In this document: one piece after another, positions 3,695 through 58,847 of the stretch
Layout: every line of letters begins with the position of its first letter
Numbering within the stretch: position 1 is the first letter of the stretch
DNA from: Patescibacteria group bacterium
GTDB taxonomy: Bacteria; Patescibacteriota; Minisyncoccia; Phycocordibacterales; SIBU01
Direction of reading: 5' to 3'
NCBI GenBank assembly: GCA_040390045.1
Contig: JAZJZC010000005.1
Coordinates: 3,360 to 67,359 of the forward strand
DNA length: 64,000 bases
Notes under the pieces: model-generated
Databases searched by the model: none
Told to the model about the DNA's origin: nothing
What the model saw: only the letters and a program-made list of their open reading frames with translations
Made by a program: the position numbers and the translations under genes

Positions 3695-3973
3695 GTGAAA
3701 AGCCATAGGAGGGTCATTGTCGAGGCGTTTTCGTCCGTTTGCGGAGTGGTGCTTGTTGTTTTCAACATAATCTTTGGTGTTGAAAGTCAGGTTAACCCTC
3801 GGGCCGCAATGGTTGGACAGCCAATCCACTTTACGTTCAAGGAATATCTGGAAGGAACGGCACGAGCGAACGGCAATACGTTTGTAAGCCGAGTTCTTGC
3901 AGTTGGCGTATACCCCGGTGTTAGGGTTGGCCAATGTATCAACAATTGGTTTTTTGTAAAACCTCGGAATTAA
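3695..3973 (+). CDS. hypothetical protein (weak call; overlaps an antisense ORF of similar size)
   Basis: ORF of 92 aa followed by a hairpin plus T-run on the same strand. No recognisable motif. Confidence 0.25.
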   Translation: MKSHRRVIVEAFSSVCGVVLVVFNIIFGVESQVNPRAAMVGQPIHFTFKEYLEGTARANGNTFVSRVLAVGVYPGVRVGQCINNWFFVKPRN

Positions 3974-6017: not shown

Positions 6018-6046
6018 GTTAGAACTTGAGAATTTTGTGTTGAAAA

Positions 6047-6080
6047 AGCCCCGCCGCGCCTTGCGCGGCGGGGCTTTTTC
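6047..6080 (+). terminator. rho-independent terminator
   Basis: AAAGCCCCGCCGCGC-CTTG-GCGCGGCGGGGCTTT hairpin followed by a T-run. Confidence 0.7.
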
Positions 6081-10474: not shown

Positions 10475-10491
10475 AATTTTTAGGTTGGTGA

Positions 10492-10530
10492 AAACCCCCC
10501 GATCTGCCGCGGCAGATCGGGGGGTTTTCG
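10492..10530 (+). terminator. rho-independent terminator or attenuator between livK and livH
   Basis: AAAACCCCCCGATCTGCCG/CGGCAGATCGGGGGGTTTT hairpin. Confidence 0.7.
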
Positions 10531-13833: not shown

Positions 13834-14781
13834 ATGGAAATTCTTAGAGAATTTAAGGCTCTGGGCAAGCATGATGTCGGGATTGCGGGAGGGAAAGGAG
13901 CATCACTTGGTGAAATGACACAGGCGGGAATTCCGGTGCCACCTGGGTTTGTGTTGCTCTCGAGTGCGTTTGAAAGATTTATTGAAGAAACGGATCTCAA
14001 TGTTGAGATTGATGCGATTTTGCATAAAGTAGATCACAAAGAAATTCACACAGTGGATCGAGCGTCGGAAGAAATTCAGGCTCTGATTCTTGCTGCGAAA
14101 ATGCCGAAGGATATTGAAGCGGAAATTGAAAAATATTTTAAAAAATTAGGAGCGACATTTGTGGCGGTGCGTTCAAGTGCTACAGCGGAAGATTCAGCTT
14201 CGGCGGCGTGGGCAGGACAACTAGATAGTTTTCTCAATACCACCGAAAAAACTTTACTGGAAAATGTAAAGCGCTGTTGGGCCTCGCTTTTTACACCTCG
14301 GGCAATTTTTTATCGATTTGAAAAAGATTTGCATAAAACCAAAATTTCCGTGGCCGTGGTGGTTCAAAAAATGGTGGAATCCGAAATTTCCGGCATCGCT
14401 TTTTCGGTCCATCCGGTGACGGAAGATCGCAATCAACTCATTATCGAAGGAGGATTGGGCCTTGGCGAGGCGATTGTTTCTGGACAGATTACTCCCGATA
14501 GTTATGTCGTCGAAAAAGTCCCGCTAAAAATCCTCGATATTAATGTTTCAACTCAAGAGCGTGGCTTGTTCAAAAAGCTTGGTGGCGGTAACGAGTGGCG
14601 AGACATCTCTACACTTGAAGGTGAGAAACAAAAATTAACCGAAGTTCAAATTCTCGAGCTGTCCGAGCTTATCATTCACATTGAAAATCATTACGGTTTT
14701 CCCTGTGACATCGAATGGGCGTTCGCCGAAGGAAAATTTTACATTGTTCAAAGTCGCCCGATTACAACGCTTAAAAATTAG
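13834..14781 (+). CDS. standalone pyruvate-phosphate-dikinase/PEP-synthase N-terminal ATP-grasp (PPDK_N) nucleotide-binding domain protein
   Basis: GGKGASLGEM, VAVRSSATAEDSASAAWAGQ and HYGFPCDIEWAFAEGKFYIVQSRP match the PpsA/RPH N-terminal ATP-binding domain. The 315-aa ORF ends with a stop and carries no His or PEP-binding domains. Confidence 0.8.
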   Translation: MEILREFKALGKHDVGIAGGKGASLGEMTQAGIPVPPGFVLLSSAFERFIEETDLNVEIDAILHKVDHKEIHTVDRASEEIQALILAAKMPKDIEAEIEKYFKKLGATFVAVRSSATAEDSASAAWAGQLDSFLNTTEKTLLENVKRCWASLFTPRAIFYRFEKDLHKTKISVAVVVQKMVESEISGIAFSVHPVTEDRNQLIIEGGLGLGEAIVSGQITPDSYVVEKVPLKILDINVSTQERGLFKKLGGGNEWRDISTLEGEKQKLTEVQILELSELIIHIENHYGFPCDIEWAFAEGKFYIVQSRPITTLKN

Positions 14782-17233: not shown

Positions 17234-18550
17234 ATGTTAAAAGCCAATCCAACAACACTCGTGGTTTTTGGAGCCACGGGGGATTTGTTTCGAACGAAAT
17301 TGGCGCCGGCCTTGCTTGCGCTTTCCGACAAGAAGGAGTTGCCGGAATTTTTACGTATCGTCGCTTTTTCCCGCCGTCCTTGGGATAACGAAAAATTTCG
17401 AGAATTTATACGAGAGGCCCTTGTGAGCAAAGCTCCAGACATTTCCACTGAGATTCTCGAAGCATTTCTTGATCGTATTTTTTACTGCGAGGGTAATTTT
17501 GACACTTTGGAAAGTTATCAAAAGGTTGCTGAGATGTTTGCGCGTTTTGATGCTGAGGCTGGTGTGTGCACCAACAAACTTTTGTATCTTGCTACTTCAC
17601 CTGCGTTTTACGAAACGATTCTTCAAAAAATTTCTAGTTCTGGTTTGGCAATTCCTTGTGCGCCTGTCGAGGGTCAATCGGAAACTGGCTGGACTCGGGT
17701 GCTTATCGAAAAACCATTTGGACATGATTTAAAAAACGCGGAGCGACTGGACAACTTGCTTGCCCAACTTTTTACCGAAGAACAAATTTTTCGTATTGAT
17801 CATTATTTGGCCAAAGAAACTATGCGTAGCATTTTGCAGTTCCGTTTTTCTAACGGGCCGTTCGAATCAATTTGGAATTCAGAGAACATCGATACTATCG
17901 ATGTAAAATTTTTAGAAAAGGATGGTGTCGGAAGCCGCGGGGAATCATACGATGGGGTGGGTGCTCTGCGAGATGTGGGGCAAAATCATTTACTTCAGAT
18001 GGCGACATTGGTGGCTATGGAAAATCCACGCAAGTTTTCGGTGGAAGCCATTCGGAAAGCTCGCGCCGAGGTGCTCGAAAAATTTAAATTAGCAGAAACC
18101 CCGCCGCCGTTGCGCGCGCAGTACGTGGGTTTTCGTGAGGAGAAAGCTGTGTCTCCTAATTCTCAAACGGAAACTTATTTTCGCTGTACACTTAATTCAA
18201 GTGCACCACGTTGGCGCGACACCGCTTTTGTTTTGGAGGCCGGCAAGGCTACGGGGGAACATAGAGTTGAGATTGTTATTCATTTTAAAAAGTCACATGA
18301 CTTGGTTTGTCCCGTCGACGCTGTGTGTAGCGCGGGAGATAACACAGTCAAATTTGATATCCTATCTTCTTCAAACAAACGTTCCGATGCGTATGAACGA
18401 GTACTGCTCGATGCAATTATGGGAGATCAAACACTTTTCATATCAACAGCAGAAGTCATTGCCGAATGGAAACTTGTCGAAGAAATTTTCAAAAAGTGGG
18501 AGAAGACTGAATTGGTGCACTATGCGAAAGGATCGATGCCAAAAATTTAA
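17234..18550 (+). CDS. zwf: glucose-6-phosphate 1-dehydrogenase
   Basis: VVFGATGDL, RIDHYLAKE and the EKPFGHDL motifs. Confidence 0.9.
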   Translation: MLKANPTTLVVFGATGDLFRTKLAPALLALSDKKELPEFLRIVAFSRRPWDNEKFREFIREALVSKAPDISTEILEAFLDRIFYCEGNFDTLESYQKVAEMFARFDAEAGVCTNKLLYLATSPAFYETILQKISSSGLAIPCAPVEGQSETGWTRVLIEKPFGHDLKNAERLDNLLAQLFTEEQIFRIDHYLAKETMRSILQFRFSNGPFESIWNSENIDTIDVKFLEKDGVGSRGESYDGVGALRDVGQNHLLQMATLVAMENPRKFSVEAIRKARAEVLEKFKLAETPPPLRAQYVGFREEKAVSPNSQTETYFRCTLNSSAPRWRDTAFVLEAGKATGEHRVEIVIHFKKSHDLVCPVDAVCSAGDNTVKFDILSSSNKRSDAYERVLLDAIMGDQTLFISTAEVIAEWKLVEEIFKKWEKTELVHYAKGSMPKI

Positions 18551-18604
18551 AAGAGGAAAGGTCTAATTGTCTGAACTTAGAGAGACTGTATAAAATTTCC
18601 AATT

Positions 18605-18640
18605 GCGTCATTCACACATTCGTACGAATGTGTGAATGAC
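18605..18640. promoter_or_regulatory. perfect 36-bp palindrome (17-bp arms)
   Basis: CGTCATTCACACATTCG-TA-CGAATGTGTGAATGACG, read directly. Confidence 0.4.
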
Positions 18641-18655
18641 GATGATATAAATTAT

Positions 18656-18673
18656 ACTTTAGTTAACTAAAGT
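18656..18673. repeat. 18-bp palindromic core ACTTTAGTTAACTAAAGT, copy 1 of 3
   Basis: Identical 18-mers occur at 22470-22487 and 40907-40924. Confidence 0.6.
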
Positions 18674-18721: not shown

Positions 18722-18760
18722 AAATAAAAAACCGCGCGCAAATCAGATTTGCGCGCGGGG
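18722..18760 (-). terminator. rho-independent terminator for the minus-strand gene 18784-19368
   Basis: CCGCGCGCAAATC/GATTTGCGCGCGG hairpin with a T-run on the minus strand. Confidence 0.55.
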
Positions 18761-18783: not shown

Positions 18784-19368
18784 CTATTCCAGCAGTCTGA
18801 TTTTCAGTGCCGTGGTACCATCGTCGACAATTTCGAACTTGCGGAATCCATTGCCTGCGAGTGTTGACTGATCTAGAATTGTTTGGATTCCAATTGTGTC
18901 GGTGACCCCCAATGCAACTGCAACAAGCCCGGCGAGGATTGGTCGGTGAGTAAAGACCAGTGCTCTATCCGCGCTCACAGGTGAATTGTTGTAAATAACT
19001 GCCATCGAACATATCGCCTGGCCTTGCCATGTATGGACATCATCCCGTTCGTGGCCAGGGTAAGGAATTATGGTACCGTCAGCATCAAGGTTGCCGTAAT
19101 GGCCGAGCTCCTCGATACACGTGACTTTCTTGATGTTGAGACGTTTGACGACGGTACACATGGAACCACACGCTCGATCCATTAGTGAACAGAAGGTTAC
19201 TTGATAGGGTCCCATTGCTCTGAGACGTGGGACCAGAGCAAGCATGTAGGCCTTCCCACTCATTGTCATTGGCGGATCAGCTGCGAGTGTCACCTCGCAT
19301 CCAGCAACCCCAGTAAGTTTTGGCCCATGGGGAACCACGACAAGGATCATACTATTTCTGACAAGCAT
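18784..19368 (-). CDS. hypothetical protein, possibly SixA-like histidine-phosphatase-superfamily member with a variant catalytic motif
   Basis: LVVVPHG at the N-terminus, where SixA has RHG, and VFTHRPILAGLVAVALG resembling the SixA SHLPLVGYLVAEL segment. GC is higher than in flanking genes. Confidence 0.3.
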   Translation of the reverse strand: MLVRNSMILVVVPHGPKLTGVAGCEVTLAADPPMTMSGKAYMLALVPRLRAMGPYQVTFCSLMDRACGSMCTVVKRLNIKKVTCIEELGHYGNLDADGTIIPYPGHERDDVHTWQGQAICSMAVIYNNSPVSADRALVFTHRPILAGLVAVALGVTDTIGIQTILDQSTLAGNGFRKFEIVDDGTTALKIRLLE

Positions 19369-19474: not shown

Positions 19475-20779
19475 ATGCCCCCCGAAAAAATTAAAGAAAA
19501 TGTTTTGAAATATAACTGGGAACACTGGATAGACAGGGATCAAGGTGCCTTTTTTTGTTCTCTTGAAAAAGGCGGTGATAGTAGGTTTTTCATGCAAAAA
19601 GTCGGTGTAGATACTGAGTTGCCCGCATCAGTTTTTCAAAATGGAGCTTGGTATGCGAGTGAAGAAGTATGGGAAATTTTTAGTAAGGAGTTGCATCAGT
19701 GGCTAGACAACAGTGGTGATATTTTTCAGGTGGTAAAAAGCTGTGAAGAATATTTGCAACAGCACAAAAAAACCATTAACCAACTCATTTCGTCAAAGAT
19801 TTCTCCGAAGGATAAGTTGATAAAAATGTATGATATTTTTACGCAGATGTTTAGTTATATATGGCTTGCGCATGGTTTTGAGCAGGTATTTGTGAAAAAA
19901 ATGCGTCTTGAAGTTCCAAGATACATCTCCGGCGATATTGAAAAGATTATTGGCGACATTAGCTTTCCGATAAAGAAAAATGCCCATTATTATTTTGAGC
20001 AGGCTCTTCGGAGTGAGATGCCGCTTGAAAAAGTTCATGAAAAATTTGCTTGGATAAAAGCTCGAGGTGGGTTTGCAGATGGTTTTACCACCAAAGAACT
20101 GACACTCGAAAGAAAAAGATTGGAAAAATTTGAACCTGTGGCTCAATTTGCTTATCCTGTGGTGCCGCCAGAATTAAAAGAACTTGTTTCGATATCCCAA
20201 GAGTTGGTTTATTTTAGAACTTTGCGCACTGATGTTTTGTATGAATTGATGTGGCAAGCCCGACCTGTTCTCACTGAAATCGCTGAGCACTTTGGTTTAA
20301 CATTTGCCGAGTTGCGTGACTACAGCGCACTCGATCTTATGGAAGGTAAAATTCAAAAGTATGAATACGGCAATTTTTCAGTTGCTTCATTTGGAGAAGA
20401 GTTCGCGATATTTCACCAGCCCATTATCCTAGAGAAAAAACAGGTTGCTGTAACAGAGCTAAAAGGCGCTGTTGCTTTTAAGGGTCTTGTGCAAGGAAAG
20501 GTGAAGGTGGTTATGGTGGCACATAATATTGGTAAGGTTAATGAGGGTGATATTTTGGTTGCTCCAACCACAGCTCCTTCATACATCATGGGTATGCAAA
20601 AAGCGGCCGCTTTTGTGACAGATGAGGGTGGAATTACTTCGCATACGGCCATTATCGCTCGTGAAATGAAGAAGCCTTGTATAATTGGCACTAAGATTGC
20701 CACTAAAGTCTTGAAAGACGAGGATTTAGTTGAGGTTGACGCGAACGCTGGTGTGGTGAAATTACTCAAAAAGGCATAA
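19475..20779 (+). CDS. PEP-utilizing-enzyme mobile (phosphohistidine swivel) domain protein with a 330-aa N-terminal domain of unknown function, paralog 1
   Basis: C-terminus AFKGLVQGKVKVV...GDILVAPTTAPSY...DEGGITSHTAIIAREMKKPCIIGT matches the PEP-utilizers His-domain. The N-terminus is related to paralog 2 (NWEHW vs NWENR). Confidence 0.75.
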   Translation: MPPEKIKENVLKYNWEHWIDRDQGAFFCSLEKGGDSRFFMQKVGVDTELPASVFQNGAWYASEEVWEIFSKELHQWLDNSGDIFQVVKSCEEYLQQHKKTINQLISSKISPKDKLIKMYDIFTQMFSYIWLAHGFEQVFVKKMRLEVPRYISGDIEKIIGDISFPIKKNAHYYFEQALRSEMPLEKVHEKFAWIKARGGFADGFTTKELTLERKRLEKFEPVAQFAYPVVPPELKELVSISQELVYFRTLRTDVLYELMWQARPVLTEIAEHFGLTFAELRDYSALDLMEGKIQKYEYGNFSVASFGEEFAIFHQPIILEKKQVAVTELKGAVAFKGLVQGKVKVVMVAHNIGKVNEGDILVAPTTAPSYIMGMQKAAAFVTDEGGITSHTAIIAREMKKPCIIGTKIATKVLKDEDLVEVDANAGVVKLLKKA

Positions 20780-20789
20780 GATAGTGGGG

Positions 20790-21695
20790 ATGAAAAAAAT
20801 AAAAATTGGATACGTTGGTTTGGGGAAAATGGGATTAAACATGGTTTTGCGAATGCAGGAGAAGGGCTACAGCGTTGTGGCGTATAACCGAAGTGAGGCA
20901 CCCAGAATTGAAGCAAAAAAAGCGGGAATTCCTGTCGCTCAGTCATTGCAAGAGTTAGTCTCGAAACTTTCAAAACCACGGACGGTGTGGCTTATGGTTT
21001 CCAATTCGGCTGTTGATGAAGTGCTCACTGAAGTTTCAAAATATTTGGAACGAGGTGATACGGTAATTGATGGCGGTAACTCCTTTTACAAAGATTCGAT
21101 TCGACGAGCGGGTGAACTTAAGAAAAAGGGAATTGAATTTCTTGACGCAGGAGTTTCAGGAGGACCTAAGGGCGCGCGAGAAGGAGCCTGCATTATGGTT
21201 GGCGGAAAAAGAGAAGTGTACGAAAAATACGAAAAGCTTTTCAAGGATTTAGTTTCGCCTAAGGCTTTGGGACTTATGGGCAAAGCTGGCGCGGGGCATT
21301 TTGTAAAAATGGTTCACAATGGCATTGAGTACGGCATGATGCAGGCCATCGCTGAAGGGTTTGCCATTATGAAAAAATCTGATTTTAAATTGGATTTGGA
21401 ACAGGTAGCGGATTTGTATAATCATAAAAGTGTGGTTGAATCGAGACTTATCGGCTGGTTGGCGAGCGGTTTTAAGAAATACGGAACTGATCTCGGAGAG
21501 ATCTCTAGTACCGTGGGACACCTGGGAGAAGGCGAGTGGACGGTTCAAGCTGGCAAGGAACTCGGTATTCCGACACCAGTGATTGAGGCCTCATTTCAAT
21601 TTCGTGTAGCATCTGCAAAAAACCCAAGTTACACTGGCAAGGTGCTTTCGACTTTACGAAATCAATTCGGGGGACACGGCGCAGGCAAAAACTAG
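20790..21695 (+). CDS. gnd: 6-phosphogluconate dehydrogenase, decarboxylating, short form
   Basis: IGYVGLGKMG Rossmann motif and HFVKMVHNGIEYG. Confidence 0.85.
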   Translation: MKKIKIGYVGLGKMGLNMVLRMQEKGYSVVAYNRSEAPRIEAKKAGIPVAQSLQELVSKLSKPRTVWLMVSNSAVDEVLTEVSKYLERGDTVIDGGNSFYKDSIRRAGELKKKGIEFLDAGVSGGPKGAREGACIMVGGKREVYEKYEKLFKDLVSPKALGLMGKAGAGHFVKMVHNGIEYGMMQAIAEGFAIMKKSDFKLDLEQVADLYNHKSVVESRLIGWLASGFKKYGTDLGEISSTVGHLGEGEWTVQAGKELGIPTPVIEASFQFRVASAKNPSYTGKVLSTLRNQFGGHGAGKN

Positions 21696-21819
21696 GAAGT
21701 TTTTGCCTGCGAATTTTCAATTTTACAATTTTCAATTTTCAAATAAATCCCGAAATTATTAAATTCCAGACTGTAAATTTGTACGATATATCGTACAAAT
21801 TGAGTCCAATAAAAAAACT

Positions 21820-22446
21820 ATGAAAATTTTCGACATCTCGGTACCACTCAACGAAAAAACCGTTATCTATCCGGGTAACGTACCGCTCGAGATTTCTATG
21901 CATCACGAAATGCCGGCACACACGACGCATCTTTCGAAGATTGTTATGGGCTCACACACCGGAACGCATGTGGATGCGCCGAGTCACGCAGTGGCGGGTG
22001 CTTCATCACTCGATCAGATCCCACTCGGGGTTTTTGTTGGTCCATGCAAGGTGATTGATTGCACTCAGAGTGTAGGTTCGGTAAAGACTGCTGACCTAGG
22101 TAAGCATTCTATTGTTAAAGGAGATCGAATTTTGATTAAAACCAAAAATTCCGCGCGAGGTTTTGAAAAATTTTACGATGATTACGTCTATCTCGATGGT
22201 GACGCCGCAGAATATCTTTCTCATTTAGAAATCACACTTTTTGGTATCGATTATTTTTCAGTTAAGCAACGAGGAAGTAAAGATCAACGTCCGCACACGG
22301 CATTACTTTCTCACAATATTCCCATTATCGAAGGAATCGATCTCTGCCAAGTGCCCGCTGGCAATTACACACTTGTTTGTCTGCCGCTTAAATTTACCGG
22401 GATTGAGGGTGGTCCAGCGAGAGTGATTCTCGTAGATAATTTGTAA
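21820..22446 (+). CDS. cyclase family protein (kynurenine-formamidase-like)
   Basis: GSHTGTHVDAPSH metal-binding motif of the Cyclase family. Confidence 0.75.
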   Translation: MKIFDISVPLNEKTVIYPGNVPLEISMHHEMPAHTTHLSKIVMGSHTGTHVDAPSHAVAGASSLDQIPLGVFVGPCKVIDCTQSVGSVKTADLGKHSIVKGDRILIKTKNSARGFEKFYDDYVYLDGDAAEYLSHLEITLFGIDYFSVKQRGSKDQRPHTALLSHNIPIIEGIDLCQVPAGNYTLVCLPLKFTGIEGGPARVILVDNL

Positions 22447-22460
22447 ATAAAAGAACATTT

Positions 22461-22496
22461 TTTTGCTCCACTTTAGTTAACTAAAGTGGAGCAAAA
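22461..22496 (+). terminator. hairpin terminator containing copy 2 of the ACTTTAGTTAACTAAAGT palindromic core
   Basis: TTTTGCTCCACTTTAGTT/AACTAAAGTGGAGCAAAA. Confidence 0.6.
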
Positions 22497-22512
22497 TAGT
22501 TCTATTTAAATT

Positions 22513-23895
22513 ATGAGAGTATCAAAAGAAGAAAAAGAAATAGTTGAGAAAATTAAATCTAGAAACTGGGAAAACCGAGTTCAGAGGCCCGGATTTTTTC
22601 AGTCGAAGCAAATTGTGTGTGAGGCACTTGGGCAGAAAACATGGCTTACAAAACATATCGCTGTTTCCGATAAAAATAGTTTTTGGGTTAGGAATTCCGC
22701 GATTTATGACCAAGATTTTACAGATAATTTAAACAAGGTGATTTTTCCGAATGCTTTTAAGGAAGATCCACATTGGCCAATAGAGGTATTTAAAAATATT
22801 GAACAATCTGCTAAGAAAAAAGATGAATTGGTTGGGAAATTTACTGAAACGGATTGGAGTAGGACGAGCACAGATGAAAAGATTTTTTGGTTGAATCGGT
22901 ACGTCGAAATTTTGCTGGAAATTCAAAAATACTATGCTTTTACAGTACCGTTGACAAATTATTGCGAGAAAATTTTAAAGGAGCGTAACCCGTCATTACT
23001 TGAGTATGCGGTACAGTACAAACCGCTTGATGTTGATCGTATGAATGAATCGCTCATCGAAATCAAAAGAGCAAAAAACGAGAATAGTCAAAATTTAGAT
23101 AATCTTTTCTTAAAACATCTAGCGCAGTTTGGGTGGATTAAATCGAATTATAATATTCTTGAGCCGTATACTAAGGAAGATGTTTTGAGTGAAATAAAAC
23201 ATGATATTTATGTCTTTCAACCGAGAGAAGCGCCGGAAAATCCTTACAAACATTTTGTAATTGGACTTCAGGTTGGTATCTACTTGCGTAATCGAGCCAA
23301 AGAATTATCCCAACAAATTTGGTTTGCATATGAAAACTTGGCTAAACAGTTGGCGACGGATGTATCATTGTCACGAGAGGATTTTTTGCAATTAAGCTAT
23401 AGAGAGGTCGAGGCCTCGCTGAACCAAGGCCGACTCACAATTAGCGGGGAAGAAATAGAAAGAAGGCATACAGGATTTATTCTCGGTGTTTTTGAAGGTA
23501 GAGATTTGTTAATAGCAGGAAAACTTGTTGATGAGTTGTTTGATTTTTTTAATCCTAAAAATTTTACGAATGTAAAGGAAATTTCTGGTACCGTTGCTTG
23601 CAAGGGTGTTGTGAGAGGAAAAGTGAAAGTGGTTATGACCATGGCTACAATCAATAAGCTGGAAGAAGGCGATATTTTGGTTACAAGCATGACTACGCCT
23701 GATTTTGTGGTTGCGATGAAAAGAGCGGCTGGGATTGTAACCGATGAGGGTGGACTCTCTTGTCATGCCGCGATAGTTTCGCGGGAACTTAGAAAGCCCT
23801 GTATAATTGGGACAAAGATTGCTACTAGGGTTTTAAAAGATGGGAATCTTGTTGAAGTTGATGCAGTAGTTGGGATTGTTAGATTAATTAAATGA
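22513..23895 (+). CDS. PEP-utilizing-enzyme mobile domain protein, paralog 2
   Basis: C-terminus CKGVVRGKVKVV...GDILVTSMTTPDF...DEGGLSCHAAIVSRELRKPCIIGT. Confidence 0.75.
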   Translation: MRVSKEEKEIVEKIKSRNWENRVQRPGFFQSKQIVCEALGQKTWLTKHIAVSDKNSFWVRNSAIYDQDFTDNLNKVIFPNAFKEDPHWPIEVFKNIEQSAKKKDELVGKFTETDWSRTSTDEKIFWLNRYVEILLEIQKYYAFTVPLTNYCEKILKERNPSLLEYAVQYKPLDVDRMNESLIEIKRAKNENSQNLDNLFLKHLAQFGWIKSNYNILEPYTKEDVLSEIKHDIYVFQPREAPENPYKHFVIGLQVGIYLRNRAKELSQQIWFAYENLAKQLATDVSLSREDFLQLSYREVEASLNQGRLTISGEEIERRHTGFILGVFEGRDLLIAGKLVDELFDFFNPKNFTNVKEISGTVACKGVVRGKVKVVMTMATINKLEEGDILVTSMTTPDFVVAMKRAAGIVTDEGGLSCHAAIVSRELRKPCIIGTKIATRVLKDGNLVEVDAVVGIVRLIK

Positions 23896-23896
23896 T

Positions 23897-24955
23897 ATGG
23901 ATATAGAAAAATTTAAACATGCAGACTGGACGAAAATTTGGGCGGGATCATGGAGTTTTTTGACATGTTTTCATTTTGGCAATGATTACACAAAAGAAAT
24001 TCACTTCGGAAGTCATCCCGTTTTCAGTCAGAGTATTATTTTTGTAAAAGAAGGCAAAAGTAATGGGTGGGCAACTCAAACAGACAGGGACCGTTTAGGT
24101 AATTTTCTTGCAACGGAGGTTAAAAATAATCCCGATAAAGCGTTAGAAGTTTGTTCTGAATTAAAGAAAGAAGTTGATTCGATTATAAATTTTTTGGATA
24201 CAAACGTTGCAGCTCAACCAAGTTTGGAAATTTACAATGATTTTTGGAACCATGTACTTCTGTACTACACACCGCATATTAATGTTAAATATGTTGTTGA
24301 TTATTTGGAACCAGAACTTTTGCAGAAGTTGTTACCACATCTTGAAGAAGCTCGTTTGTATGCCGAACCAGTTTTCAAGAGAACCGAAGATTTTATGATC
24401 TCAACAGCGCAAGCTATTGGTCAAAAAATTAATCTACCATATGAGCTTGTGCTTTGCACGACGAAGTCTGAGATGGACGAATATTTTAAAGGCGGCATTT
24501 TTCCGAAAAGGAACGTTCTTGAAGAGCGAAATAAGGGAGCGGTAATTTTATTTGATGAAACAGACTCGATGGTCATTACTGGTGCTGATGTACAGAAGGT
24601 TGAGGACATTGTTACTAAACAAACTGCAACCAATGTGATTAAGGGAATGGTTGCCTATAAAGGTAAGGTGACTGGCCGCGCTGTGATTATTCTCGATCCA
24701 ACAAAAGCCAATCATTTTGTTGAGGGAGATATTTTAGTGACAGGAATGACGCGACCCGAATATTTATCAATTATGGAAAAGGCAGCAGCCATTGTTACTG
24801 ACGCAGGAGGTATTCTTTCGCATGCCGCCATTTCTGCTCGAGAATTGAAAAAACCTTGTGTCATTGGAACACAGGTTGCGACAAAAGTTTTGAAGGACGG
24901 GGACTTGGTGGAAGTGGATGCTGATAGTGGAATAATTCGGTTATTAAAAGCCTAG
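23897..24955 (+). CDS. PEP-utilizing-enzyme mobile domain protein, paralog 3
   Basis: C-terminus DAGGILSHAAISARELKKPCVIGT. The N-terminus is homologous to paralog 4 (KHADWTKIW vs KHTDWVKVW, and ARLYAEPVF vs ARLYCEPAY). Confidence 0.75.
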   Translation: MDIEKFKHADWTKIWAGSWSFLTCFHFGNDYTKEIHFGSHPVFSQSIIFVKEGKSNGWATQTDRDRLGNFLATEVKNNPDKALEVCSELKKEVDSIINFLDTNVAAQPSLEIYNDFWNHVLLYYTPHINVKYVVDYLEPELLQKLLPHLEEARLYAEPVFKRTEDFMISTAQAIGQKINLPYELVLCTTKSEMDEYFKGGIFPKRNVLEERNKGAVILFDETDSMVITGADVQKVEDIVTKQTATNVIKGMVAYKGKVTGRAVIILDPTKANHFVEGDILVTGMTRPEYLSIMEKAAAIVTDAGGILSHAAISARELKKPCVIGTQVATKVLKDGDLVEVDADSGIIRLLKA

Positions 24956-24971
24956 TTGTTATTTTAGTTTT

Positions 24972-25859
24972 ATGAATATTAACGAAATGCCACCTAAGCA
25001 AGAGAGTCAGGAAATTATTTCCAAGATACAATTACATTTTTTCAGACACGGTGAACAGTTTAAGGATCCAGCAAAATCTGACCCTGAATACGAACTTTCT
25101 GCGGCTGGACGAGAGCAGGGAATGAATAAAGCGAAGTCAATTGAGGAAAGACCGAACCTCCGGCAGACCATGGCTTTTGGGAGCCCGAGAGCACGGTCAC
25201 AACAGACTGCCTCTTTTGCGATGGCTGGCCAGGCGCTCGATAGTGTTGTTGGTGACGAATCGCTGAAAGAACTTAAGGCAAAACTGGATGGAGATATTTC
25301 CTACGGATCTAAGGTAATGAGTGATCCTCGTCTCGATTTTACTATGGATAAGGATACCCCATTTGGAGCAAAAGCATTTGAAGCTTTTTCAAAGAAAGAA
25401 TATATGAAGTTTTTAGTTAATTCAAGTGATGCATTGGCGAAGGAAGTAAAAGACTCGAAAGGGTCAACATACTCAAGACAAGCTGGAGATGTGGCTCAAG
25501 TAGTAAAGAAATATCTTTCAGTCTCTAGCCGATGGAAGGAACTTGTCCAAAGTGGTAAATATCAAGATCCCAAACTCGAGCGATTTTTAGGTTCTCATGG
25601 TGGTGTAACCGAGTCTTTTTTGTTTAAGGTGATTGAAAAAACTAAAGGAATAGAGGAGCGTGACAGACTTCTAGCTCTTATTCCAAACATTTTTGATTTT
25701 ACGGAAGGTTTTGATGTCGAACTTGTAACCACTGACAGAAATAGCGAACCAGCAGTTAGGATTATTTACAAGAAGGAATTGCCTGGCGGCAAAAAGTTTA
25801 AATTTAACGAAGTTGTTCCGATTGAAGTTATTGAGGAAATTGTAAAAGAAGGAAAATAA
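24972..25859 (+). CDS. histidine phosphatase superfamily (phosphoglycerate-mutase-like) protein
   Basis: N-terminal FFRHGE (RHG motif) and the downstream LGSHGG second catalytic His motif. Confidence 0.55.
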   Translation: MNINEMPPKQESQEIISKIQLHFFRHGEQFKDPAKSDPEYELSAAGREQGMNKAKSIEERPNLRQTMAFGSPRARSQQTASFAMAGQALDSVVGDESLKELKAKLDGDISYGSKVMSDPRLDFTMDKDTPFGAKAFEAFSKKEYMKFLVNSSDALAKEVKDSKGSTYSRQAGDVAQVVKKYLSVSSRWKELVQSGKYQDPKLERFLGSHGGVTESFLFKVIEKTKGIEERDRLLALIPNIFDFTEGFDVELVTTDRNSEPAVRIIYKKELPGGKKFKFNEVVPIEVIEEIVKEGK

Positions 25860-25865
25860 AATTTT

Positions 25866-26942
25866 GTGGAACTTTCTGATTTCAAAAAACACACTGATTG
25901 GGTAAAAGTTTGGTCTTCTAGAGGAAGTCTGGCTTTCGATTCTCATTTTGGAGATCAGTGTACAAAGCAAAGTGATATTTCAAGTAAGCCATTTTTTGCT
26001 AAGACGGTGACGTTTTACAAAAATGGCATTTCTCATGGGTGGGTACGTGGTGAAGATAAAGATGATTTAGGTGACAGACTAAGCTCTTTGGCGAGGGAAG
26101 ATAGTACGTTTGTAGAAAAAATATCAAATGGTTTGATTTCTCATACAGACAGGGTAGCTTCTTTTATAGACTCTCAAAGTGTAAAAAATTTTGGACTTGT
26201 CGAATTTAATGAATTTTGGAAGGTAGTCCAAGATTATTTTTTATACCATGTGAGTGTTAAGTATATTGTTGATCGTCTTTCGATTGAAGATCTAGATAAA
26301 TTTTTACCAACACTTGAAAAGGCAAGGTTGTATTGCGAACCCGCATATAGAAATATCGAAAATTATATAGAACTTCTCGCTGAGAGAGTGGTCACGGAAA
26401 CTTCATACACCAAAGAAATGATTTTGGCCCTAACCAAGGAAGAATTCAGATCGTATTTTCAAGGTAATTTATTGCCGGATAAAGCCCAGCTAAAAAATCG
26501 GCATGAAAGTTCTGTACTTATTTTCGATTCCAAAGAGAGTCAGGTTTTTACTGGTATGGCTGTAGATGAAATTGAAAAAATCGTTTCATCTTTTTTGGCA
26601 CCCGATCTTATAAAAGGTCAAGTTGCTTTTGTGGGGAAGGTTATTGGTAAAGTAAAAGTGATCTCTAATCCATTGAAGGACGGGGGAAAGTTTGACGATG
26701 GAGATATCTTAGTAACCGGGATGACTCGACCAGAGTTTTTACCGCTCATGAAAAAAGCTGCAGCGTTTGTAACTGATGCGGGTGGAATCCTTTCTCATGT
26801 TGCTATTACGGCGCGTGAGTTGAAAAAGCCCTGTGTTATTAGTACCCAAGTTGCTAGCAAGGTTTTAAAGGATGGGGATTTAGTAGAGGTAGATGCCAAT
26901 TTAGGGATTGTAAAGATTTTAAAGAGAAACGGAGACAAATAA
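25866..26942 (+). CDS. PEP-utilizing-enzyme mobile domain protein, paralog 4 (GTG start)
   Basis: C-terminus DAGGILSHVAITARELKKPCVIST. Confidence 0.75.
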   Translation: MELSDFKKHTDWVKVWSSRGSLAFDSHFGDQCTKQSDISSKPFFAKTVTFYKNGISHGWVRGEDKDDLGDRLSSLAREDSTFVEKISNGLISHTDRVASFIDSQSVKNFGLVEFNEFWKVVQDYFLYHVSVKYIVDRLSIEDLDKFLPTLEKARLYCEPAYRNIENYIELLAERVVTETSYTKEMILALTKEEFRSYFQGNLLPDKAQLKNRHESSVLIFDSKESQVFTGMAVDEIEKIVSSFLAPDLIKGQVAFVGKVIGKVKVISNPLKDGGKFDDGDILVTGMTRPEFLPLMKKAAAFVTDAGGILSHVAITARELKKPCVISTQVASKVLKDGDLVEVDANLGIVKILKRNGDK

Positions 26943-26965
26943 AATGGCTGTGGTAAGCTGGGGGA

Positions 26966-27361
26966 ATGATTACGCCAATTATTGAGGGAAAAGTCATAAA
27001 AGGCGACGGATATGGCCGGAAGCTGGGGTTTCCGACAGCGAATTTGGATAGGAAACAGTTTTTGAAAGACAAAATGGATTTGCCGCTCGGGGTCTACGCC
27101 GGTGTGGTTTTTTTGCATCATCTCAAAAAAATTCTAAAAACGGCGATTGTGATTGGTCCGCTCGACAAGAAAAAAACTCCGAAAATCGAAGCGCATATTT
27201 TAGGTTTCAAGGGGAAGTTGTATGGAAAAAAGTTGACGCTCTATCCCTATAAATTTCTCAGACCCTTTGAAACTTTTAAAACCGAAAAACTTTTAATTGC
27301 TCAGATTAAAAAAGATGTGAAGCGGGTTGAAAAGGAGGTGGCGGCTCCGCCGTTATTTTAG
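26966..27361 (+). CDS. monofunctional riboflavin kinase (flavokinase domain only)
   Basis: GDGYGRKLGFPTANL motif of the RibF C-terminal domain. At 131 aa there is no FAD-synthetase domain. Confidence 0.75.
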   Translation: MITPIIEGKVIKGDGYGRKLGFPTANLDRKQFLKDKMDLPLGVYAGVVFLHHLKKILKTAIVIGPLDKKKTPKIEAHILGFKGKLYGKKLTLYPYKFLRPFETFKTEKLLIAQIKKDVKRVEKEVAAPPLF

Positions 27362-27441
27362 TCTGCTAAAGTAACGGCGGACGTAGGTTTTTTTTGTTTG
27401 GTATTGTACAATGTTGTGATTATTATATTTAAAATGCATTC

Positions 27442-33796: not shown

Positions 33797-33836
33797 AGGG
33801 AGAATAGAAAAACTCCCCGATTCGCTTCGCGAATCG
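33797..33836 (+). terminator. rho-independent terminator
   Basis: AAAAACTCCCCGATTCGC/GCGAATCGGGGAGTTTTT. Confidence 0.65.
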
Positions 33837-33905
33837 GGGAGTTTTTCTCAATTTCCCAAAATAAAAAACCTGCCACAGAGTAGCAGATTGAATCACATCG
33901 GTTCG

Positions 33906-40764: not shown

Positions 40765-40895
40765 GGAATTAATCTCGACTCAAACTCCGAATTATTTCGG
40801 AGTTTTTTCTTGCCTTATATTCTAATGTTCTCAAGAATATCAGAACATAGTTTGTAATAGATAGAAAATTTCTAGATACCTAATGTTTAGGAATT

Positions 40896-40947
40896 AGCAT
40901 AAAGAAAAAACCCGCTACTTTAGTTAACTAAAGTAGCGGGTTTTTTT
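40896..40947. terminator. bidirectional terminator containing copy 3 of the ACTTTAGTTAACTAAAGT core
   Basis: A6-CCCGCTACTTTAGTT/AACTAAAGTAGCGGG-T7, between convergent genes. Confidence 0.65.
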
Positions 40948-58577: not shown

Positions 58578-58805
58578 GGTTAGAAATTATATCACGGCGT
58601 ACGAGAGTGAGTAATGGATACTTACGAAATAGAGCCTGTAGTTAATTCAGAATTTTCTCTCGAGAGATGCGGTTTCATACCGCTGATTAAAATTTGTACG
58701 ATATCTACCTGACAACATTCAGGCGAATAGCCTAGAATTTATGTATTTCTTGCAGCCGCAACAAATACATAAATTTTAATAGAGACCTCCTTTTCCCACA
58801 CACAC

Positions 58806-58847
58806 TAATTGTATGCTATAGCATACAATTAGTGTGTGTTGAAAATC
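58806..58847. promoter_or_regulatory. perfect 42-bp palindrome (21-bp arms)
   Basis: ACACACACTAATTGTATGCTA/TAGCATACAATTAGTGTGTGT, in a divergent promoter region. Confidence 0.45.

Follow-up and report, generated by a model that had tools for sequence, protein, structure and literature searches.

The window analysed here, the whole stretch of 64,000 nucleotides, contains three exact copies of the 18-mer ACTTTAGTTAACTAAAGT, which all read ACTTTA-GTTAAC-TAAAGT and are all located in intergenic DNA (Table 1). The expectation for this 18-mer in shuffled versions of the window was 0.02, and three copies were reached in none of 100 shuffles. When up to three mismatches were allowed, no copies beyond the three exact ones were found in the window. 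The preliminary description of this DNA had reported three identical 18-mers between genes; their number, identity and intergenic positions were all borne out, but its coordinates for the third copy (40907–40924) were 10 too low. A further site, site 4, which that description had missed, keeps intact TTTA-N6-TAAA arms around a centre that is not palindromic, and has one T.G position.

Site 1 lies in a spacer of 233 nt, with a G6PD-like gene ending at 18550 on one side and, convergent to it, a minus-strand ORF of 194 aa ending at 18784 on the other. The site follows a 36-bp perfect palindrome at a distance of 14 nt and is upstream of the terminator (18732–18758) that belongs to the minus-strand gene. 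Site 2 forms the centre of a 70-bp quasi-palindrome (22444–22513), which spans the entire 66-nt spacer from the stop codon of a cyclase/arylformamidase-like gene to the ATG at 22513. Site 2 and the degenerate site 4 stand on either side of the gene cluster in Table 1, which is the candidate for the unit under regulation. Site 4 itself overlaps the stop codon of the riboflavin kinase gene, with a T-run (27388–27395) on its 3′ side and the start of an EamA gene about 70 nt downstream. Site 3 lies between convergent proB-like (+) and PurN-like (−) genes, both of which have terminators of their own (40782–40805 on the plus strand and 41029–41004 on the minus strand), and is located between these terminators. 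No his genes were found beside the window sites, where the neighbours are G6PD-like, cyclase, PEP-utiliser, proB-like and PurN-like genes. No convincing sigma-70 promoter overlapping site 2 was identified, no convincing small ORF or clear promoter was seen at site 1 or site 3, and no tRNA or tmRNA was found in the window.

Four paralogues in the window carry the PEP-utilising 'mobile' (phosphohistidine) domain only, at the C-terminus (13834–14781, 19475–20779 and 22513–26942). A PPDK_N ATP-binding protein is encoded separately in the window, as is a His_Phos_1 protein, and together these proteins form an unusual split dikinase-like system.

Table 1. Positions of the core sites in the window and of the gene cluster between sites 2 and 4.
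Feature	Position	Strand	Description
Site 1	18656–18673	.	Bare 18-bp core, predicted HisR/YerC-type operator; context tat-core-gca
Site 2	22461–22496	.	36-bp perfect palindrome TTTTGCTCC-core(22470–22487)-GGAGCAAAA
Site 3	40905–40946	.	42-bp perfect palindrome AAAAAACCCGCT-core(40917–40934)-AGCGGGTTTTTT
Site 4	27355–27372	.	Degenerate core ATTTTAGTCTGCTAAAGT within hairpin CCGCCGTT/AACGGCGG (27347–27380)
Gene cluster	22513–27361	+	Three PEP-utiliser mobile-domain proteins, His_Phos_1 protein, riboflavin kinase

The flanks of the three exact cores differ in the way that had been described earlier. Site 1 is bare, with a palindrome extension of 0 beyond the core, and the core is extended by GCTCC/GGAGC at site 2 and by CCCGCT/AGCGGG at site 3; the palindrome lengths of 36 and 42 bp in Table 1 include the A/T runs that follow these arms. 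At site 3 the order is A6-CCCGCT-core-AGCGGG-T6, with a T-run that is 7 long, which gives the shape of a terminator on both strands. At site 2 the order is TTTTTTT-GCTCC-core-GGAGC-AAAA, and the outer c...g of the 20-bp consensus discussed below is also present. Since both strands of site 2 carry the T-run on the 5′ side and the A-run on the 3′ side, this site is not a canonical intrinsic terminator in either direction, and its listing in the terminator scan arose because T/A pairs were counted as stem. Judged by a G+C stem-loop followed by a T-run, site 3 qualifies on both strands and sites 1 and 2 do not. The earlier suggestion that sites 2 and 3 are followed by T-runs and also act as terminators is thus retained for site 3, as a matter of shape only, and has to be dropped for site 2. 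As RNA, site 1 folds at −6.7 kcal/mol (z −1.35) and is not significantly structured, and the values for sites 2 and 3 are −27.9 and −29.3 kcal/mol, with z about −9 for both.

We predict with good confidence that the 18-mer is a high-affinity and fully symmetric operator of a YerC/YecD-type (HisR-like) protein of the Trp-repressor family. The core fits exactly the published HisR operator consensus cacTTTAnnnnnnTAAAgtg, a palindrome of 20 bp. YerC is HisR, a histidine repressor of the TrpR family, whose motif cacTTTAnnnnnnTAAAgtg is present in Firmicutes, Actinobacteria and Synergistetes, and the site CAGTTTAGTATAGTAAAGT of Ruminococcus gnavus was bound in vitro in a reaction that required histidine (PMC9413887).

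An exact scan for the 18-mer in one genome per species (185,579 species, 596 Gb) gave 76 loci with 86 sites, about two thirds of them labelled Patescibacteria/CPR, and between 1 and 11 exact cores per genome. The CPR matches include Paceibacteria, Nomurabacteria, Saccharibacteria and Liptonbacteria, and the others include Coriobacteriia, Clostridia, Veillonella and Bacteroidota. Depending on base composition, roughly 1–50 exact matches are expected by chance over 596 Gb, so isolated matches outside CPR, such as those in Tenacibaculum, may be chance or unrelated. The excess in CPR and the link to a repressor gene are far beyond chance. In many loci, the start of a gene of about 100 aa is found at a distance of a few bases to some tens of bases from the core. 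A gene of this length encoding a Trp_repressor/YerC-YecD protein was present in 24 of the 76 core-selected loci (hmmsearch E-values of 1e-22 to 1e-45) and, with the same HMM, built from these proteins, in none of 35 control loci. Each of the 24 repressor genes, which come from related and unrelated genomes alike, is preceded or overlapped at its 5′ end by a core, exact or near-exact, as is characteristic of autoregulation. The Pfam cut-off for Trp_repressor (PF01371) was passed by all four representatives scanned, three from CPR and one from Clostridia, and the cut-off of TIGR02531 by three of them, the CPR protein of locus L066 scoring 33.2 against 42.2.

In their recognition helix, S(A/T)TI(A/S)R(V/I), the CPR proteins match the solved HisR-type structures 3G1C, 3FRW and 3KOR. 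Promoter geometry also fits an operator. In some loci (L048, L113–L116) the −10 of a TTGACA-17-TACACT promoter overlaps the first bases of the core, and in others (L051, L059) the core fills the 17-bp promoter spacer, as TTGACA-core-ATAAT. Near-matches in other loci keep the arms and vary the centre, which is as expected for a TrpR-type reader of half-sites. Of the functions considered in the preliminary description, a dimeric DNA-binding-protein site centred on GTTAAC is the one that gained support, from the match to the HisR/YerC consensus and from cores at promoters of Trp_repressor-family genes in 24 independent loci.

The same variation bears on another possibility, a GTTAAC (HpaI-type) restriction-modification system or other nuclease or recombinase site. 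All three copies do have GTTAAC at the centre. However, it is precisely the centre that varies among near-matches elsewhere while the arms are kept, and GTTAAC occurs 11 times in the window against an expectation of 14.9 ± 3.9, which is neither avoidance nor enrichment. No restriction-modification gene was seen among the approximately 30 window ORFs that were scanned, and we give this explanation almost no credence.

Compared with HisR, represented by YerC of B. subtilis (Ashniev et al. 2022, PMC9413887), the similarities concern both site and protein. Both sites are palindromic with cACTTTA/TAAAGTg arms, the proteins belong to the same family (PF01371, TIGR02531) with the same recognition-helix residues, and autoregulatory sites are found at the promoter of the regulator. 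Patescibacteria are outside the phyla analysed in that study. The differences are that no his genes are present at the window sites, that the CPR neighbours are functionally mixed, and that many copies are enclosed in long perfect palindromes, the dispersed copies having a fixed GTTAAC centre. Moreover, the CPR proteins carry the helix-2 motif 'RDLLTE', in contrast to 'FEDVCT' in HisR of Firmicutes. Because the CPR proteins and HisR of Firmicutes thus differ in the helix that binds the effector, the effector in CPR may differ; the genes beside CPR sites are, moreover, not his genes.

The fold and the dimeric binding to a palindrome are also those of E. coli TrpR. The classic trp operator of E. 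coli has TAGTTAACTA in its middle, identical to the centre of the core, whereas the outer arms differ, GTACTA for TrpR and ACTTTA for the core. Scores of the CPR proteins with the NCBIfam model of TrpR (TIGR01321) are far below the cut-off. The TrpR consensus is TGTAcTnGTnnACnAgTACA, and the residues that contact tryptophan are not conserved in HisR-type proteins (PMC9413887). Among the papers of the library searched, none connected TrpR-family proteins to Patescibacteria.

Connections to histidine were seen at several loci of the survey. In Ignavibacteriaceae (L025), a protein of the 'RDLLT' subtype is followed by a near-core and then by hisG-hisD-hisC...hisH, and in a CPR relative (L116) hisI (PRA-CH) adjoins the repressor gene. 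In Collinsella, Enorma and Christensenella (L008, L014, L051), the gene past the core resembles an amino-acid ABC substrate-binding protein, an assignment made by reading the translations; such a gene in these non-CPR loci is the hisX type of target in the published HisR regulon. Pfam analysis of about 60 neighbours of CPR sites showed no common function but a mixed housekeeping set, including Hsp70, SecA, tRNA synthetases, Tmk, nucleoside phosphorylase and PurD. A nucleotide/PRPP theme among the neighbours (Tmk, nucleoside phosphorylase, deoxyribosyltransferase, PurD, PurN-like, NUDIX, LOG-like and 6PGD) is suggestive.

Several observations count against the operator reading. The window copies are all perfect, with none carrying 1–3 mismatches, and a regulon would not usually look like this. 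Sites 1 and 3, two of the three, are located where no promoter is expected, and no convincing sigma-70 promoter was seen over site 2. The window encodes no repressor and has no his genes at its sites. Positional conservation is lacking, and the neighbouring genes are mixed. Perfect extensions of 6–13 bp and symmetric differences between copies are also not accounted for by protein binding.

Two further sets of loci were noticed in the survey. In Tenacibaculum spp. (L013, L026, L044, L058), an exact core is located at an orthologous position in four species, 8–30 nt upstream of the same gene of about 285–290 aa, which in L013, the only one scanned, encodes a GLPGLI-family protein. No TrpR-like gene was found near these cores, which could be chance in genomes of 28–30% GC, kept by descent, or a real site. 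In a MAG labelled Nanoarchaeota (L040), a YerC/YecD gene of bacterial type is accompanied by cores, both exact and near-exact, and by promoters resembling those of sigma-70, which points either to mis-binning of the contig or to transfer of the gene.

No repressor gene was found in the 64-kb window by tblastn and HMM searches of all six-frame ORFs, and it is therefore expected elsewhere in the genome, as judged from relatives. The window belongs to a Patescibacteria (CPR) genome. Window genes are 70–79% identical in DNA to contigs of the Patescibacteria MAG H41-bin128_1 (JBBTUO01), the closest relative, in which 11 exact cores are present, three of them flanking a repressor gene. Relatives with 78–84% identical repressors keep this three-core layout. 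Relatives were sampled from the Hainich H41 well. The four closest repressor homologues, at this same identity of 78–84%, come from samples other than the run of the window contig (SRR26324623).

Positions of the cores differ between relatives. In the orthologous spacers of H41-bin128_1 and of 23 metagenomic relatives of the cyclase gene, the sites of the window were absent, which makes site-by-site phylogenetic footprinting impossible. In H41-bin128_1, a core separates the 6PGD gene from the cyclase gene, a position without a core in the window, and no core is present at the position of site 2. The four genes at 22513–26942 are absent in two other relatives (L078, L088), and riboflavin kinase there follows directly after the cyclase gene. 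In a further relative (L089), a perfect palindrome of 38 bp is located between two PEP-utiliser genes whose window counterparts are separated by 1 nt, and its core variant is symmetric (G7C/C12G). In these comparisons, core-bearing spacers are 55–66 nt long, and the same junction in the other genome is 1–4 nt. In addition, a palindrome TTTTTTTGCTAC-core-GTAGCAAAATA in locus L081 sits in another spacer than TTTTTTTGCTCC-core-GGAGCAAAATA of the window. L081 and site 2 represent a common unit of about 45 bp with one compensatory pair changed, GCTAC..GTAGC against GCTCC..GGAGC.

These observations also concern the proposal that the core is a miniature mobile element. A MITE or REP-like repeat was rejected, since the three window copies have flanks that bear no relation to one another, as do most of the 86 sites, and no direct repeats were seen at the borders of the core units. 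What remains of the proposal is that sites are not positionally conserved and that a version of about 45 bp recurs in a non-orthologous spacer.

The preliminary description had also drawn attention to co-varying flanks, and this feature proved to be real, general and statistically strong. Among the 84 exact cores with enough flanking sequence, the palindrome was extended by at least 4 bp in 33%, compared with 0.5% of controls (about 65 times chance), and by at least 6 bp in 21%, compared with 0.04% of controls. Extensions are locus-specific, have lengths of 6–13 bp and end abruptly, and 20 of 21 are free of mismatches. They are found in CPR and non-CPR genomes alike and, by reading of the sites, are rare at the repressor's own promoter. 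An extension of at least 6 bp was present at 22 of 94 sites with a palindromic centre and at none of 22 sites with a non-palindromic centre (p=0.006). Few extended copies are terminator-shaped, and in several (site 2, L024, L072) the T-run is on the wrong side. In this lineage, the left flank TTTGCTAC together with ACT is the extended −10 in the promoter of the repressor gene itself, and the right flank GGAG in L115 resembles a ribosome-binding site (SD). Because these flanks correspond to an extended −10 or an SD, their partner arms look like mirror copies of a functional flank.

In two copies from the same Saccharibacteria genome (L022 at 4386 and L052 at 167), a 30-bp palindrome, GGATTT-core-AAATCC, is common to both. 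The copies then diverge, and each is perfectly complementary for a further 6–7 bp past the point of divergence.

Protein binding does not explain perfect extensions and symmetric differences. We attribute them to a process acting on the whole palindrome, either extension and homogenisation of arms by intrastrand template switching or selection of gene-end hairpins; site 4, with its T.G position and non-palindromic loop, fits hairpin selection better. Template switching is an established mutational mechanism that extends and perfects inverted repeats, and quasipalindrome mutagenesis of this kind likewise produces perfect arm extension, homogenisation and paired symmetric changes (PMC7202029, PMC3820800, PMC8604942). 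It is known from reporters in E. coli and yeast, whereas for the cores considered here it is inferred from the sequence pattern.

An alternative to be considered is that the window copies, especially sites 1 and 3, are not selected regulatory sites but products of copying at the DNA level, in which a short palindrome seeded by an operator spreads or is rebuilt in spacers, its arms are lengthened and homogenised by fold-back synthesis and repressor binding is incidental. The perfect, abrupt and locus-specific extensions at one third of exact cores would agree with such copying, as would their association with a perfectly palindromic centre, the mirrored −10 and SD flanks, and the symmetric differences between copies (G7C/C12G in L089, and L081 compared with the window). 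The same is true of the unit of about 45 bp shared with L081 in non-orthologous spacers, of the long core-bearing spacers at junctions of a few nucleotides, and of the location of copies in 'safe' DNA between the terminators of convergent genes; template switching at inverted repeats is moreover established, as cited above. However, the three window copies and most loci share nothing past the core, no target-site duplications or transposase accompany them, and the unit is too small for autonomy. Copy number is low, with 1–11 exact cores per genome, and the hairpin of site 4 would be better explained by selection at the RNA level. We consider this explanation of the window copies unlikely; it can hold together with the identification of the core as an operator, which it does not replace.

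A second explanation is that the element acts as RNA, an apical stem-loop (7-bp ACUUUAG/CUAAAGU with a UUAA loop) carried on locus-specific stems and working as a terminator, a 3′-end stabiliser or a site for an RNA-binding protein. The stable folds of sites 2 and 3 (−28 to −29 kcal/mol) point in this direction. Extended copies are almost always 10–80 nt past a stop codon, a terminator shape is seen at site 3, L061, L067 and L076, and pairing in site 4 is kept via a U.G wobble although the loop has changed. Other hairpins of the lineage also co-vary, as does the one over the 6PGD stop codon described below. In contrast, Rfam covariance models at gathering score gave no matches in the window, bare site 1 is not significantly structured, and most extended copies have no 3′ U-tract, with several (site 2, L024, L072) carrying it on the opposite side. 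A bare core located at a promoter or upstream of it is seen in many copies, and those upstream of a −35 would not be transcribed from that promoter. Furthermore, the TTAA of the loop is both conserved and palindromic, which is more than an RNA hairpin requires, and the tight link to the gene of a DNA-binding HTH protein explains the core. The RNA stem-loop suggested in the preliminary description is therefore disfavoured, having no Rfam family and including bare copies and copies upstream of a −35, and we regard it as highly improbable.

Related arrangements are known elsewhere. IHF sites are located inside BIME/RIP elements of E. coli, and DNA-uptake sequences of Neisseria and Haemophilus in inverted pairs form terminators. 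By analogy, the extended cores may likewise be short conserved sequences recognised by a protein and placed in intergenic hairpins after genes. BIME/RIP and DNA-uptake elements, however, have hundreds to thousands of copies and conserved arms, whereas the core has 1–11 copies per genome and its apex alone is conserved.

Other palindromes were observed in the window. The perfect palindrome next to site 1 is CGTCATTCACACATTCGTACGAATGTGTGAATGACG at 18606–18641; its imperfect arms reach 18591–18656, a promoter-like TTGTCT-18-TAAAAT (18567–18596) precedes it, and it may be another operator or a hairpin. Upstream of the cyclase/arylformamidase-like gene, a 26-bp perfect palindrome AATTTGTACGATATATCGTACAAATT is present in a single window copy (21776–21801). 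Its core TACGATATATCGT is kept in relatives, in L001 at about 3755–3782 on the minus strand and in L079 upstream of the cyclase gene, and the outer arms differ and are still largely complementary (ttg/caa against cta/tag), the same flank behaviour; AATTTGTACGATATATCGTACAAATT is probably the operator of a different regulator. A hairpin GCAGGCAAAAAC-TAGGAA-GTTTTTGCCTGC covers the 6PGD stop codon (21680–21711), and its counterpart upstream of the cyclase gene in L081, CTTTCGGAAAAAT-TAGGAA-ATTTTTCCGAAAG, conserves the apex while the stem co-varies. Four terminator-shaped hairpins of 36–43 bp with perfect arms (1534–1573, 10490–10529, 33806–33848 and 6042–6080) are all bordered by A-run and T-run; two have zero loop, which is unusual for RNA, whose loop need not be self-complementary, and two have a loop of 3 nt. 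A near-perfect palindrome of 54 bp, TTTCCCACACACACTAATTGTATGCTA followed by TAGCATACAATTAGTGTGTGTTGAAAA, is located at 58792–58845 and is 93% complementary.

According to the operator reading, the helix-turn-helix protein of about 100 aa would bind as a dimer, with one recognition helix for each ACTTTA/TAAAGT arm, and the locus-specific stem extensions would lie outside its recognition. In relatives, the repressor would repress its own gene by way of two cores, of which the first is upstream of the −35 and the second overlaps the −10 or start site; the third core of the layout stands in front of the gene next to the repressor. In the window, repressor bound at site 2 may block initiation, or read-through from the cyclase gene into the cluster. 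For sites 1 and 3, which are not in front of a gene start that they could control, we would suggest, with less weight, that they most likely are extra binding sites that serve as roadblocks or insulators, or that have no regulatory output.

We propose tentatively, as a possibility that we hold to be less probable than not, that the HisR/YerC operator in Patescibacteria has become the seed of dispersed long perfect palindromes, which have the operator at the apex, mirrored locus-specific arms, quick turnover between spacers and symmetric (concerted) change. Such palindromes could be the outcome of a self-perpetuating template-switch process nucleated by a perfect protein-binding palindrome. They could also be dual-purpose hairpins, bound by the repressor and marking operon boundaries in compact genomes. 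The site type, the HisR/YerC operator, is known; what is new is its hairpin-embedded and dispersed form in Patescibacteria.

To our knowledge, Patescibacteria have very few regulators, and the control of transcription in this group is almost entirely unexplored. An operator and its cognate repressor family, assigned by homology to a validated system, offer a handle on one of its regulons. Its predicted targets are not histidine genes, and several loci touch nucleotide and sugar-phosphate metabolism. The excess of perfect locus-specific extensions provides a natural data set on template switching in regulatory DNA, and could also be used to test the fusion of operators with gene-end hairpins in compact genomes. 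If the reading as dispersed palindromes is true, the repressor would be a genome-wide factor and no longer a regulator of the histidine pathway.
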